In this document: one piece after another, positions 9,005-14,039 of the stretch
Position numbering within the stretch: the first letter of the stretch is position 1
How the letters are laid out: every line of letters begins with the position of its first letter
Sequence record: PZ386965.1
DNA length: 64,000 nucleotides
Reading direction: 5' to 3' (one strand)
DNA from: a phage
The notes under the pieces: model-generated
Seen by the model: the letters and a program-made list of their open reading frames with translations, nothing else
Told to the model about the DNA's origin: nothing
Databases searched by the model: none
Translations under genes and position numbers: made by a program

Positions 9005-9475
9005 TTAATCATGTTTCCACACCCCATCGGTATTTGACCAAAGTCGCTGATTATCTGATCCTCGCCACAACTTTTTGGTCGGAAGATTTTTCTCATACTT
9101 ACCATCAATAATAACATCAACATATTTAAGCATTTCTAGTTGTTTAATATCTTCAAACTTATATCCTGTCCACAACCAAATGCTTTTACTGGGATAAAGA
9201 TTTTTAATAGTTTGAACCACAGAGTGAATCACATCTCTGTTATCAGGATAGAGAGGGTCACCTCCGGTTATAGTCAATCCTTCTATATAATCATTATTCA
9301 AACATTCAATTAATTGTTCTAGTGTCTCTCCGGTGAATGGAGCACCATTTCTAGCGTTCCATGTTGATTTATTATAACACCCTTCGCATTTATGCAAACA
9401 ACCTGTAACGAAAAGAACGACCCTGCAACCAGGGCCATTAACAAAATCGCAAGGATAAAATCTATCATAATTCAT
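9005..9475 (-). CDS. nrdG: anaerobic ribonucleotide reductase activating protein NrdG
   Basis: 156 aa; CxxxCxxC radical-SAM cluster motif (CLHKCEGC); matches recalled T4 NrdG. Confidence 0.9.
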   Translation of the reverse strand: MNYDRFYPCDFVNGPGCRVVLFVTGCLHKCEGCYNKSTWNARNGAPFTGETLEQLIECLNNDYIEGLTITGGDPLYPDNRDVIHSVVQTIKNLYPSKSIWLWTGYKFEDIKQLEMLKYVDVIIDGKYEKNLPTKKLWRGSDNQRLWSNTDGVWKHD

Positions 9476-11289
9476 TGGTGTTTAACCCTATGCATGATTT
9501 CTTTATTTTTACCGAGATTAAATCCGCGTTCGTTCGGATTTCCAAGATAACCGCATGTTCTTCTTATGGTGTTCATCTTTTTAGGATCAGTTTCTCCACA
9601 AACTGAACAAACAAATCCATTTTCAGTAGGAGTCATTTCATGAGTACTTCCGCATGTAAAACATTTATCCACTGGCATATTAACACCAAAATAATCTAAA
9701 TGTTGCGCAGCATAATCCCAGACAGCCTCAAGTCCCTTTAAATTGTTTTTCATATCTGGAAGTTCAACATAAGAAATGTGACCACCTGTCGCAATGAAAT
9801 GATACGGCGCTTCACGAGAAATCTTTTCAAACGGAGTAATATTTTCTTCTACTGAAACATGGAAACTATTAGTGTACCAGCCTTTATCGGTAACATCTTT
9901 TACGCTTCCATATTTTTCAGTATCAAGTTTACAGAAGCGATAACAAAGGTTTTCAGCAGGAGTAGAATATAAACTAAAAGCAAATCCAGTTCTTTCGGTC
10001 CACTGTTTAAGATGAGCATTCATTTTAGTTAAAATTTCTTGTCCAATATCACGACCAACAAGAATATTCAATTCATGAATACCAATGTATCCTAAAGACA
10101 CTGAACTTCTGCCGTTTTTAAATAACTCAATTATATCGTCATCAGGTTTAAGACGAACCCCGAATGCACCTTCTTGGTAAAGAATAGGAGCAACAGTCGC
10201 TTTAACTCCTTTTAAAGAACTAATTCTACACATCAAGGCTTCAAAACACAGATCCATTCGTTCATTAAATAGCTCAACAAATTTCTGTTCATTGAACTGT
10301 GTTCCAATATAAGAATCTAACGCGATACGAGGAAGATTCAGTGTTACAACACCAAGATTATTACGTCCATCAAGAATTTCATTACCAGTCGAATCTTTCC
10401 ATACGCTCAAGAAACTACGGCAACCCATTGGAGAAACAGGAACTGAAGAACCGGTAATAGCTTTATTATTCTTAACAGAAATAATGTCAGGATACATTCT
10501 TTTGCTTGCACATTCTAACGCAAGTTGTTTAATATCATAGTTTGGATCATCTTTATAAAGATTAACACCTTCTTCAACAAACATAACAAGTTTAGGAAAA
10601 ATAGGAGTTATTCCATCACGACCAAGACCTTTAATGCGGTTTTTAAGAATTGCCTTCTGAATCATTCGTTCAGTCCAGTCGGTTCCTGTTCCAAATGTTA
10701 TAGTAACAAAAGGAGTTTGCCCGTTTGAACTAAAAAGAGTATTTACTTCATATTCATAAGCTTGGAATGCATCGTATACGTCTTTTTCCGTTTTAGATTG
10801 AGCATAATTCAACGCATCAGCGATTTGCCATTTTTCTGCATCCTCAATATGTTTTGCATAGGTGCGTTTAACATAGGGAGAAAGTACTTTATCTACATTA
10901 GCAAAAGTCGTTCCGCCGTATTGATGGGAAGCAACTTGTGCAGTAATTTGTGCCATAATTGCAGTAGCAACACCAATCGATTTAGGCGTTTCGATTTGAG
11001 CATTGCCTAATTTAAAACCATTCTCAAGCATCCCCTTTAAATCGACTAAACAGCAATTAGTAAACGGAAGAGCAGGAGAATAATCAATATCATGCATGTG
11101 GATAATTCCACTTTCATGCGCATTCATAATAAAAGACGGGACCGTATTTTTGGCAATGTGCTTAGACACAATACCAGCCATAAGGTCCCGTTGAGTTGGA
11201 AAAACACGAGAATCTTTATTAGCATTCTCGTTCAAAAGATCTTTATTAGTTTTACGAATTAATCCTTCAATTTCTTTTTCAATTTTCAT
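9472..11289 (-). CDS. nrdD: anaerobic ribonucleoside-triphosphate reductase NrdD (uninterrupted, no intron)
   Basis: 605 aa continuous ORF; C-terminal glycyl-radical motif RRTCGYLG; matches recalled T4 NrdD. Confidence 0.95.
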   Translation of the reverse strand: MKIEKEIEGLIRKTNKDLLNENANKDSRVFPTQRDLMAGIVSKHIAKNTVPSFIMNAHESGIIHMHDIDYSPALPFTNCCLVDLKGMLENGFKLGNAQIETPKSIGVATAIMAQITAQVASHQYGGTTFANVDKVLSPYVKRTYAKHIEDAEKWQIADALNYAQSKTEKDVYDAFQAYEYEVNTLFSSNGQTPFVTITFGTGTDWTERMIQKAILKNRIKGLGRDGITPIFPKLVMFVEEGVNLYKDDPNYDIKQLALECASKRMYPDIISVKNNKAITGSSVPVSPMGCRSFLSVWKDSTGNEILDGRNNLGVVTLNLPRIALDSYIGTQFNEQKFVELFNERMDLCFEALMCRISSLKGVKATVAPILYQEGAFGVRLKPDDDIIELFKNGRSSVSLGYIGIHELNILVGRDIGQEILTKMNAHLKQWTERTGFAFSLYSTPAENLCYRFCKLDTEKYGSVKDVTDKGWYTNSFHVSVEENITPFEKISREAPYHFIATGGHISYVELPDMKNNLKGLEAVWDYAAQHLDYFGVNMPVDKCFTCGSTHEMTPTENGFVCSVCGETDPKKMNTIRRTCGYLGNPNERGFNLGKNKEIMHRVKHQ

Positions 11290-11759
11290 TTTAAACTCTT
11301 TCTAAGCTGCTTTTTGAATGAAGCTATTAATTGTGTTTTAGTATCAGATTCATTATATTCAAATCCTCTTTGAAGCATCTCGGCCATCATTTCCTCTTTA
11401 CCTAGTCTTGAGAACTCTTTAGTTTTGTCTGGAACAAAATTAGGATGGATATTATTATCAGAATAATCTTGTTTCAAATAAGCAAGAAGAGCTTCAAGCC
11501 ATTCTAAGTAGTCAACGTTTTGACCTTTCAAACCGGAACGGTTGAACTTATGCTTCATTTGACCTTCTGCTGCGTTGCACAGATTACAGAGTAATCCACG
11601 AACTCTACCGGCTTTTGGCCCATTTAATTCGTGGTCATGGTCAAGATGGTTACCTTGAACATCAGGGTCTAATTCACGGTGGCAAATAGGACACTTACCG
11701 TTCTGTGCATCATAAAATTTTTGTTTTTCTTCTTTATATTTTGCGCCTGATAATAACAT
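11286..11759 (-). CDS. 49: endonuclease VII (Holliday junction resolvase) gp49
   Basis: 157 aa; zinc-binding CPICHR...HLDHDH...CNLCN; matches recalled T4 endo VII. Confidence 0.95.
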   Translation of the reverse strand: MLLSGAKYKEEKQKFYDAQNGKCPICHRELDPDVQGNHLDHDHELNGPKAGRVRGLLCNLCNAAEGQMKHKFNRSGLKGQNVDYLEWLEALLAYLKQDYSDNNIHPNFVPDKTKEFSRLGKEEMMAEMLQRGFEYNESDTKTQLIASFKKQLRKSLK

Positions 11760-11788
11760 GATAAACCCTTACCTTAAATAGATAAGGG

Positions 11789-11796
11789 TATTTATA
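11789..11796 (-). promoter_or_regulatory. T4-type late promoter (TATAAATA) upstream of gene 49
   Basis: Exact TATAAATA on minus strand 30 nt upstream of the gene 49 ATG; gene 49 is known to have a late promoter in T4. Confidence 0.5.
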
Positions 11797-11798
11797 AT

Positions 11799-11978
11799 TT
11801 AGTAAACGTTATAAAAGTCTCGATGGAAACGCTTATACTGACGAATCATTCTTTTAGTAGGACGAGTTTCTGAAATAATTGAAGTCCTCATATTTGGATT
11901 GTTTGGGGCCCCAATCATAATAAATTTCCAAGATTTTTGACCGTTTGTTCTTTCGCCAAAAAATAACGCAGTTTTCAT
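11799..11978 (-). CDS. small basic protein S1, 59 aa (below ORF-track cutoff)
   Basis: ATG start; MKTALFFGERTNGQKSWKFIMIGAPNNPNMRTSIISETRPTKRMIRQYKRFHRDFYNVY; paralog of 12403..12573. Confidence 0.35.
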   Translation of the reverse strand: MKTALFFGERTNGQKSWKFIMIGAPNNPNMRTSIISETRPTKRMIRQYKRFHRDFYNVY

Positions 11979-11987
11979 AATAAGCCC

Positions 11988-12401
11988 TTAACTTAAACGT
12001 CTTTCTAAATATTCAATGTATTCCGCTGCGGCTTGCATCAGATTGCCTTCATAACCGTCATTATTTTCTTGACCAGCTAATTTAGCTAAAGCATAAGAAA
12101 TACGTTCACCTTCGAATTCGCCAAGTCCACCATCACAAACTACTTGGTCAATTTCTTCGAGTTCGTCTATTGAATGGGATTCCCAGAAGCACCAAAGAGA
12201 AGTATCACGGTCATAGATGCAAAGTTTCTCACCTGTGTTCAACATCACTTCGATAATGCCATGGTCGCCATAACCATCTTCGGTAGTAGTACCAATTACC
12301 TTGATGATTGTTCCTTTCTTTAATTCAGGAAACTTGTCTTGTAGTTCTTCGTCTTCTTTAACAATCTTGAACCATTTACCGCGAGTTTCAGAAATATTCA
12401 T
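11988..12401 (-). CDS. hypothetical protein
   Basis: Trimmed to ATG (MNISETRGKWFK); 137 aa. Confidence 0.45.
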   Translation of the reverse strand: MNISETRGKWFKIVKEDEELQDKFPELKKGTIIKVIGTTTEDGYGDHGIIEVMLNTGEKLCIYDRDTSLWCFWESHSIDELEEIDQVVCDGGLGEFEGERISYALAKLAGQENNDGYEGNLMQAAAEYIEYLERRLS

Positions 12402-12402
12402 A

Positions 12403-12573
12403 TCAATATTCTCTATAAAAGTTACGATGAGAACGTTTAGCTTTGCGAAGCTGACGTTTAGTAGGACGAACTGTAAATGGTTGTCCAGAGAAAAAATTCG
12501 GATCGGTTTTAATAAGCAAACACCAATCATGCTTGCCATTTTTTAATAAACGGTACAATAATTTAACTTGCAT
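12403..12573 (-). CDS. small basic protein S2, 56 aa (paralog of S1)
   Basis: ATG with GAAGAG SD; shares K..W..I....P....RPTKR..R..KR.HR.FY pattern with S1. Confidence 0.35.
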   Translation of the reverse strand: MQVKLLYRLLKNGKHDWCLLIKTDPNFFSGQPFTVRPTKRQLRKAKRSHRNFYREY

Positions 12574-12701
12574 AATAATCTCTTCCCATTTCCATATCAA
12601 TTAATTCATTTATTGAAGGTTCATCATAACATGGTTCTTCGTCGTTGTAAACCGTTTCGACGTCTGGCTCGACAGTCTCCCATCGAGCCGAATACCACGG
12701 T

Positions 12702-13058
12702 TTAACCCCGGAGTTTATTGAGCTCTTCATAATCAATCCAGGATTCTAGCCCTGATGGCAGGTCACATTCAATGTTCCACAGAAGCTCTTCAATGGCTTG
12801 CAGGCGATTATATTCTTCAACGGTAATGGTAACCATTGGTGCAACCGGTTCTGCCTTTTTAACCATCATATCGTTCATCAGGACGTAAAGGTCATCACGA
12901 ACGACAGTGTCGTTCCAACCCCATGATTTGGCTTCGTAAGCTAATGACGAAGGGAGCACATTTAAAACTTCAATAATAGATGGAGATTCAGGACCAAGCT
13001 CTGATACACAAACTTCGTATGCATCTTGGAAATCTTTAAGATTTAATGAATATGTCAT
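12702..13058 (-). CDS. hypothetical protein
   Basis: 118-aa ORF. Confidence 0.45.
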   Translation of the reverse strand: MTYSLNLKDFQDAYEVCVSELGPESPSIIEVLNVLPSSLAYEAKSWGWNDTVVRDDLYVLMNDMMVKKAEPVAPMVTITVEEYNRLQAIEELLWNIECDLPSGLESWIDYEELNKLRG

Positions 13059-13077
13059 TTAAAATATTCTCGCAGTT
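13055..13077. repeat. 23-bp direct repeat copy 1 (TCATTTAAAATATTCTCGCAGTT)
   Basis: Identical to 13370-13392; the pair flanks the single gene 13077..13373. Confidence 0.8.
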
Positions 13078-13373
13078 TATTGTTCTACCCAGGCACAGGA
13101 AACTTCGAAATCAGGACCACCGTATTCCCAGTGATATTCACCAACAGGAATCCAGTCACCGTGCTCGTTTTCTTCGTAGTCTTCAGGTTCAAGACCAACG
13201 AATCGCCATTGAACACCTATGATTCGATTACCCATTAATATACGAAATTCACCCCATGGATTATCGATAGCATATTGGATATCGTTCTTAGCACGAGAAC
13301 ACATTTCTTGATATAACAAAGCTTCTAATTCGCCCTGATCATAAGGGCCCGGGAAAGTTAAATCAATACTCAT
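13077..13373 (-). CDS. hypothetical protein (cassette gene bracketed by direct repeats)
   Basis: 98 aa; ATG overlaps nrdC stop (ATGA). Confidence 0.45.
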   Translation of the reverse strand: MSIDLTFPGPYDQGELEALLYQEMCSRAKNDIQYAIDNPWGEFRILMGNRIIGVQWRFVGLEPEDYEENEHGDWIPVGEYHWEYGGPDFEVSCAWVEQ

Positions 13374-13392
13374 TTAAAATATTCTCGCAGTT
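13370..13392. repeat. 23-bp direct repeat copy 2
   Basis: Identical to 13055-13077; here it encodes the nrdC C-terminus and stop. Confidence 0.8.
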
Positions 13393-13633
13393 GGTCAAAT
13401 CCACCAATATGACTTCCGTCAGGAGCAAATACTTGAGGCATAGTCAATCCAACTTGTGATTCACGTCCAAGCTTAACCAGAAGCTCAGCAATTTTTTCTT
13501 CATCGAATACACCTTTTTCTGGCATAATGTTGATAAATTCAAACGGCTGTTTCTTAACAGTCAGCAATCGTTTCGCATTATCGCAATAAATGCATTTATG
13601 AATAGTAGAGTCATACCCGTACACTTTAAACAT
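13370..13633 (-). CDS. nrdC: thioredoxin NrdC
   Basis: 87 aa from MFKVYGYDS...CIYC; matches recalled T4 thioredoxin; GAAAGG SD. Confidence 0.9.
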   Translation of the reverse strand: MFKVYGYDSTIHKCIYCDNAKRLLTVKKQPFEFINIMPEKGVFDEEKIAELLVKLGRESQVGLTMPQVFAPDGSHIGGFDQLREYFK

Positions 13634-14039
13634 TATTTTTCCTTTCATCGATTAAATATGCAACGCCAAATACAATACATGTAATAAAACCTGTGATACA
13701 GATAGAAACCAACAACACTGTACCAAAGAACCAAATCAAGTTATCTTTAGTAGTTTGTTTGATATCCATCTCACGAATTTCTATAGCTATCGTATCACCT
13801 TTATTCAGAAGCGTATAAAATGACGGTGATACACGCCTGTCAAAAACTCGTCCTTGCTCATCTTTATAGACTGCAATAAATTCTAATTTAGAATATTTTC
13901 CTGTAGATTGGCCTGAGATTAATTCCACTACCTCCACAGGAATTACTTTAGTTTCCATGTAAGTATTCTGGCTGTTCCAAATGAATGGAATAATAGCAAA
14001 AACTAAAGCTGCGATAAAACAACGAAGGCTATATCTCAT
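13626..14039 (-). CDS. membrane protein (two hydrophobic segments)
   Basis: 137 aa; N- and C-terminal hydrophobic stretches. Confidence 0.45.
   Translation of the reverse strand: MRYSLRCFIAALVFAIIPFIWNSQNTYMETKVIPVEVVELISGQSTGKYSKLEFIAVYKDEQGRVFDRRVSPSFYTLLNKGDTIAIEIREMDIKQTTKDNLIWFFGTVLLVSICITGFITCIVFGVAYLIDERKNNV

Follow-up and report, generated by a model that had tools for sequence, protein, structure and literature searches.

Two small basic DUF7279 paralogs bracket a pin homolog upstream of gene 49 in a T-even phage genome

The region between gene 49 and nrdC of a T-even phage raises the question of why two short reading frames for related, highly basic proteins should lie on either side of a gene for a PinA-type Lon protease inhibitor, and whether these frames are genes at all. 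The window, the complete 64,000-nucleotide stretch of phage DNA analyzed here (record PZ386965.1), carries the two frames, which we call S1 (11799-11978) and S2 (12403-12573), on the minus strand. Each begins with an ATG, at the position where a preliminary description had placed it.

The segment from 11286 to 13648 shares 93-96% identity with Mosigvirus (RB69-like T-even) genomes such as ATK47, phiC120 and WFL6982, and all of its genes are on the minus strand. From nrdC (13370-13648) the order continues with an unnamed ORF (13077-13373), a second unnamed ORF of 118 aa (12702-13058), and a 57 aa homolog of gene 49.1 (12563-12736; pI 4.05) that matches PHROG 2382 and is annotated as gp49.1 in ATK47 and RB69. 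S2 follows, then pin (11988-12401), which encodes a 137 aa PinA-type Lon protease inhibitor homolog of pI 4.4 (PF10465, E=8e-49; PHROG 2167), then S1, an intergenic stretch with a late promoter and a hairpin (11761-11798), gene 49 for endonuclease VII (11286-11759), and nrdD (9472-11289), all likewise on the minus strand. The early report that S1 and S2 flank a gene at 11988-12401 between endonuclease VII and nrdC is borne out, and that gene is pin. Spacing is tight: S2 shares 11 nt with the end of gene 49.1 and stops 1 nt short of the pin ATG, and S1 is the final gene ahead of the gene-49 hairpin. The C-terminal half of the ORF at 12702-13058, which is equivalent to RB69ORF091c and RB32ORF081c, matches PHROG 3402, 'antitoxin from a toxin-antitoxin system' (E=1e-32). 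Together with pin, this match suggests a small host-takeover or counter-defence neighborhood.

Translation of S1 gives a protein of 59 aa, 7.2 kDa and pI 11.0. S2, read from the ATG at 12573, gives 56 aa, 6.9 kDa and pI 10.8; the ORF lister had started it at a TTG at 12600, for 65 aa. The Shine-Dalgarno sequence claimed for S2 is present as GGGAAGAG (12580-12587), six nt 5' of the ATG, and S1 has AAGGG (11985-11989) at the same distance. The two proteins, described from the outset as small, highly basic paralogs, are genuinely so: pairwise BLASTP aligns them over their full length with a single 3-residue gap and 20/59 identities (34%, E=8e-11). In a six-frame search of the 64-kb window S1 and S2 each matched the other at E~8e-8, the next best match having E=0.075, and this search together with an HMM scan of all window ORFs found no further DUF7279 copy elsewhere in the window. 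At the level of sequence, the similarity is far beyond chance. The shared motif that had been proposed holds in part. Its C-terminal portion, RPTKR..R..KR.HR.FY, is exact in both proteins, whereas the N-terminal portion is only approximate, as it needs the 3-residue gap and S2 has L/I at the I of the motif.

The family itself is not new. Against the 53-position model of Pfam DUF7279 (PF23945, gathering threshold 24.5 bits), S1 scores 49.1 bits (residues 10-56, model 4-53) and S2 scores 50.3 bits (residues 7-53, model 1-53), while both match PHROG 3272 (59 positions) at 1-59/59, with E=2.3e-28 for S1 and E=3.8e-26 for S2. S1 has a 100% identical counterpart in phage LH01, a hypothetical protein, and its orthologs are RB69ORF087c, RB32ORF078c and JS98 orf76. 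By tblastn, 356 phage records contain S1-like genes and 404 contain S2-like genes; all are T-even phages of enterobacteria. A word-indexed homolog search with S1 returned only 3 near-identical clusters. Because an exhaustive HMMER search of 1.84 billion representative proteins with an S1/S2 profile found only three true relatives, we regard the DUF7279 family as confined to the T-even phage group. One further profile match, a 1685-aa ankyrin-repeat protein (P0004), was spurious and arose from its 16 'NG...ADPN' repeats. Distant relatives of 54 aa with the pattern ...PTKPTKAQIRRRKKW.R..W.Y follow pin in some other T4-like genomes (L021, L024 and L035). In the 44 IMG/VR loci and the reference genomes, every S match lies between gene 49.1 or pin and gene 49. 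S1 and S2 are like the named members of DUF7279 and PHROG 3272 from T-even coliphages in size, in their position upstream of gene 49 and in host range, and show no difference in kind from them. They are thus rediscovered members of a hypothetical family that is already catalogued as DUF7279 and PHROG 3272. The consulted DUF7279 records do not state that two diverged copies bracket pin, or that the tail of the family recurs in T4 PinA. A literature search with incomplete coverage returned no mention of DUF7279 or of a chimeric origin of the PinA tail, which does not in itself establish novelty. Its one match, to 'ORF087c', was to a different phage's gene and was discarded.

The proposal that annotation had missed both genes applies to some records only: the ATK47 RefSeq record lacks both, but other records annotate S1 and S2. 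S2 is obscured in the window, where an ORF at 11988-12539 (183 aa, minus strand) consists of pin plus a spurious 46-codon 5' extension that runs across S2 in another frame. The same over-extension hides S2 in the 'protease inhibitor' protein clusters P0028 (184 aa) and P0031 (180 aa). The practical value of the result is therefore better annotation, in which S1 and S2 are called and the extension of pin over S2 is stopped.

The pattern of substitution indicates that the two frames are under purifying selection, and therefore that S1 and S2 encode proteins. For S1 orthologs of Mosigvirus, Tequatrovirus and Dhakavirus dN/dS is 0.08-0.26, with synonymous sites near saturation, comparable to the 0.06-0.12 of the neighboring gp49. 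For S2 compared with a diverged metagenomic copy (L053) it is 0.12, and that copy carries an in-frame one-codon insertion. Different codons are used at 8/20 of the residues that are identical between S1 and S2, and indels in the comparisons of S1 and S2 are multiples of three only. Loss of the reading frame in related phages had been named as the observation that would count against coding; the frame is instead conserved.

What the proteins do was approached through a predicted fold. An AlphaFold2 model of S, built from a 4-sequence alignment and of moderate confidence only (mean pLDDT 77.7), places strands at residues 2-9, 15-24 and 27-36 and a helix at 42-58, from which the fold would be a beta-meander of three strands with an amphipathic C-terminal helix as its cap. 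In a helical-wheel projection one face consists of M44, I45, Y48, F51, H52, F55, Y56 and Y59 and presumably packs on the sheet. The exposed face opposite consists of K42, R43, R46, R50 and R53, five residues that S1 and S2 have in common; K49 and H52 lie on the flanks of the aromatic face. K42, R46, K49, R50, H52 and R53 are invariant in our alignment (A1). The distant relatives of the L021 type also keep K42, R46, K49, R50 (as K) and R53, and H52 is kept in the T-even members. That exposed basic residues are conserved argues for a binding surface for a polyanion. Of the candidate ligands we infer that nucleic acid is the most likely and an acidic protein less so, although the basic surface could equally bind acidic Pin (pI 4.4) or gp49.1 (pI 4.05).

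The preliminary description had suggested nucleic-acid or ribosome binding from composition. Searches of PDB profiles, BFVD, NCBIfam and PADLOC returned no structural or profile match of S to a nucleic-acid-binding or ribosome-binding family. The PDB sequence-profile matches were designed-repeat artefacts only and were rejected, the best BFVD structural matches were uncharacterised 54-aa proteins of the T4-like phages S16 and Merlin, NCBIfam gave no match to S1 or S2, and PADLOC gave none at E <= 1 and no toxin-antitoxin family match. Sso7d/Cren7 and the AP2/Tn916-integrase N-terminal fold are small basic beta-sheet-plus-helix nucleic-acid binders. The S proteins resemble them by analogy only, at ~7 kDa, pI ~11 and with a beta-sheet capped by a C-terminal helix, and no significant similarity was found between S1 or S2 and the known small nucleic-acid-binding folds (Sso7d, AP2/Tn916 Int-N, ribosomal proteins). 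Our best guess from sequence and model, offered with low confidence, is that S1 and S2 are polyanion-binding, probably nucleic-acid-binding, early accessory proteins.

The reading that we prefer joins this guess to the history of the locus. S1 and S2 are protein-coding accessory genes, ancient paralogs of the T-even-specific DUF7279 family on the same strand as nrdC, 49.1 and pin, and are probably expressed early and co-transcribed with the nrdC-49.1-pin cluster. The exposed basic helix face would bind a polyanion, and the two copies would be functionally redundant, each being dispensable. Their conserved 3' ends are short direct repeats on either side of pin, and through microhomology-mediated recombination at or near these ends pin has been lost, or joined to an S tail, more than once. 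As a whole, coding paralogs, polyanion binding, redundancy and recombination together, we hold this reading tentatively and judge it to fall slightly short of an even chance. The S1 and S2 ORFs themselves are ordinary, and the by-products of their history are of more interest.

The history was followed in 44 IMG/VR loci around gene 49 and in the reference genomes, all annotated with small HMMs; counts of architectures are from these sampled loci and from BLAST summaries. The interval between 49.1 and gene 49 is a variable cassette with fixed borders, the end of 49.1 on the left and the hairpin and late promoter on the right, and gene 49.1 is present in nearly all surveyed loci. The order S2-pin(137)-S1 is found in the window, in RB69 and in an IMG/VR contig (L008). 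ST0 and phiE142 have one chimeric S and no pin, T4 and its relatives have pin alone in a form of 161 codons with a tail, and RB32 and L013 have pin(161) followed by S. Dhakavirus genomes have pinC-pinN-S, pinC-S or S alone, the three loci with the distant relatives have pin and then a distant S, and more distant genera have pin only or nothing. The split pin of Dhakavirus is permuted. In JS98 (L006, 1529-2004; also L015, L018 and L019) the C-terminal helical part comes first (orf78, ending ...FSDEAF) and the N-terminal beta domain second (orf77), and several JS98 relatives keep the C-terminal piece only, or none.

The recombination junctions can be read directly in the DNA. An alignment of the DNA of the window, ST0 and phiE142 shows that the ST0/phiE142 gene is identical to window S2 up to ...CATCGTAACTTTTATA and then to the window S1 end from ACTTTTATAACGTTTACTAA. 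This S2::S1 chimera corresponds to a 604-nt deletion between 9-nt repeats that removed pin. The repeat, ACTTTTATA, lies on the minus strand in the S2 tail at 12414-12422 (codons N-F-Y-R, the left-hand crossover) and in the S1 tail at 11810-11818 (codons D-F-Y-N, the right-hand crossover), and the S2::S1 junction is present in 70 phage records (about 70 Mosigvirus). In a Logan contig (L052), S2 precedes a fusion of pin to the nine C-terminal residues of S1 (...YLERRFHRDFYNVY), and the crossover is at CGTTT. Two independent ENA metagenomes (L053 and L054) carry an in-frame S2::pin fusion in which one T has been lost (TATTGATATG to TATGATATG), and in both of these S1 has been wholly removed. At 11978-11990 in the window pin and S1 are in the same frame, one TAA and three codons apart (...RRLS-stop-GLIMKT...); an in-frame pin::S fusion therefore needs only a deletion of a multiple of three. 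Deletion and gene fusion through microhomology in T-even phages have left a clear natural record at this locus.

In the hyperplastic regions of T4-type genomes, modular shuffling is mediated by PeSLs (Arbiol et al. 2010, PMC2839356; Comeau et al. 2014, PMC4122927). The present case is similar in that short repeats flanking a non-essential gene mediate its loss or exchange among closely related T4-type genomes. PeSLs, however, are intergenic cassettes of a promoter and a stem-loop, whereas the repeats here are the coding 3' ends of paralogs, and unlike PeSL cassettes the crossovers here are at microhomologies of 5-10 nt (up to ~50 nt in RB32). Promoter-like sites in the region number 11 against 8.0 +/- 2.9 expected, which is not above chance, and the scan found no terminator-like site at the cassette borders. 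We rejected a PeSL cassette on the grounds that the repeats are coding and that promoter-like sites are at background level.

A fusion of this kind is the source of the T4 PinA tail. Neither S1 nor S2 matches the Pin domain (PF10465, Inhibitor_I24), their only hit being PF23945, and they are unlike PinA in that S is strongly basic and PinA acidic. The 137 aa Pin of the window ends ...YLERRLS-stop and lacks the C-terminal tail of T4 PinA. Pins of many genera end ...LExQLxFSDxAF-stop, and the 148-aa Pins of Tequatrovirus end ...SFSDRAF. The 161-aa PinA of T4 and RB32 ends ...SFSD(R/Q)MI(Q/R)QYKRLHQMFYNT, and in RB32, which has both the fused tail and a full S gene (L005, 1479-2177), the PinA tail is identical at 15/16 residues to the end of the S gene 40 nt downstream (MIRQYKRLHRMFYNT). 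The last 16 residues of T4 PinA (P07068, 161 aa, Inhibitor_I24; RMIQQYKRLHQMFYNT) are homologous to the S tail in both protein and DNA. Just before the S gene of RB32 is a 22-nt repeat of the pin end (AACTCAAAATTCTTTTTCTGAC), followed by ...AGGACATTTTAATG. This repeat preserves the ancestral junction, ...SFSDRTF-stop, with a stop that overlaps the S start codon. T4 matches the RB32 pin end at the left and the RB32 S end and hairpin at the right; T4 therefore lacks the body of S and has kept only the tail, fused to pin. The PinA of T4 (L003, 4898-5383) and of RB32 is thus chimeric, and the source of its last 16 residues is the C-terminal helix of a DUF7279 protein. The T4 form may derive from an RB32-like ancestor in which a deletion joined the two tails, or it may have come first. 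Removal of the last 8-10 residues of T4 PinA reportedly abolishes inhibition. To our knowledge T4 PinA is the only Pin that has been studied biochemically, and the published PinA biochemistry used the chimeric form. The textbook Lon inhibitor is a chimera with a DUF7279-derived tail, and natural tail-less Pins offer a comparison.

These fusions raise an alternative, that the S proteins act in the Pin pathway, with a portable C-terminal basic-aromatic helix that contacts Lon or Pin, and serve as auxiliary Lon modulators or decoy substrates; T4 PinA would have captured this helix through gene fusion. S genes always adjoin pin or occupy the pin slot. The last 16 residues of T4/RB32 PinA match the RB32 S tail at 15/16 positions where the ancestral Pin ends ...FSDxAF, a second, independent fusion of pin to the S1 tail exists (P0034, from L052), and the S2::pin fusion (P0033) comes from two separate metagenomes. 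The last two are evidence of the Rosetta-stone type. The tail is also predicted to extend the long C-terminal helix of Pin, but in the AlphaFold2 model of the 161-aa PinA this extension is of low confidence (pLDDT ~50-57). Chance fusions are, however, to be expected in a deletion-prone locus, where about one third of deletions are in frame. In addition, S occurs without pin in ~70 Mosigvirus records and in L017, and Pin does without S or a tail in many T4-like genera and in its forms of 148 aa and 137 aa. The occurrence of each without the other therefore argues for a pin-independent activity of S. Some T4-type Pins have Asn in place of the otherwise invariant tail His, which points to a relaxation of constraint there. 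On balance we consider a role of S in the Pin pathway speculative and unlikely. The fuller proposal, that the DUF7279 helix is a portable Lon-engaging module, that S1 and S2 belong to an anti-proteolysis toolkit and that PinA owes part of its activity to the captured tail, seems to us quite unlikely. If it were true, S1 and S2 would be unrecognised members of the anti-proteolysis and counter-defence toolkit of T-even phages, and the tail-less Pins (137 and 148 aa) would either depend on S supplied in trans or differ in behavior.

The acidic protein gp49.1 offers a second possible partner; S would be the basic and gp49.1 the acidic member of a two-component complex such as a neutralising pair. 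Gene 49.1 lies immediately upstream of S and overlaps it in the window (S2), in ST0 (the chimeric S) and in L017, and the 11-nt overlap with S2 means that translation may be coupled; the C-terminal half of the neighboring gene, moreover, matches the antitoxin-annotated PHROG. Against this, stop and start codons usually overlap in T-even genomes, S1 does not adjoin 49.1, pin comes after 49.1 and S is absent in T4 and in many other genera, and no PADLOC or toxin-antitoxin family match was found. This pairing is distinctly improbable in our view, and polyanion binding by redundant accessory proteins remains the reading that we prefer.

The right border of the cassette has signals of its own. The S1 stop is directly followed by the T4 late-promoter consensus TATAAATA (11789-11796). 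Next to it is a 7-bp hairpin with arms at 11765-11771 and 11783-11789, the downstream arm of which holds the gene-49 Shine-Dalgarno sequence AAGGG. The hairpin region, 11761-11798, is annotated as a terminator in ATK47 and WFL6982 and is nearly identical in T4. We take the hairpin to be the known arrangement in which translation of gene 49 is reportedly masked on long early transcripts. All deletion variants keep this border, and in each a stop codon lies upstream, no more than ~12 nt from the hairpin. The abutting of the S1 stop on the late promoter and hairpin, the retention of the border in every deletion variant, and the frequent loss or possible frameshifting of S copies might be taken to mean that the S ORFs are non-functional and that conservation reflects DNA or RNA signals (the gene-49 promoter and hairpin, or recombination sites) with incidental frames, but this is very improbable and largely refuted by the substitution pattern, as in three genera dN/dS stays far below 1 along the entire frame, synonymous codon differences occur at residues conserved between S1 and S2, only in-frame indels are found, S2 keeps the same protein motif 600 nt from gene 49, and the alternative frame across S2 is a database artefact.

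The two apparent frameshifts are both in homopolymers. The window has an A6 run at 12539-12544 (minus strand, S2 codons 10-12) where RB69 (L004, ~1930) has A7. This change frameshifts the RB69 copy of S2, and therefore only a 38-aa remnant is annotated there, as RB69ORF089c, beside the S1 ortholog RB69ORF087c. In L008 (~3300), S1 has T7 in place of T6, which frameshifts that copy. These are either slippage-prone sites or sequencing errors, and since +1 homopolymer changes could be sequencing errors we do not count them as proof of pseudogenisation. The frequent loss of S, together with these possibly frameshifted copies, means that any function of S is conditional.

Two further observations concern the neighboring sequence. 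Compared with RB69 (L004) the segment 11286-11978 contains a sharp mosaic boundary, with dS=0.06 in gene 49 and dS=0.53 in the adjoining S1. The nrdD gene is uninterrupted here, with 605 codons; T4 nrdD has a group I intron with I-TevII.
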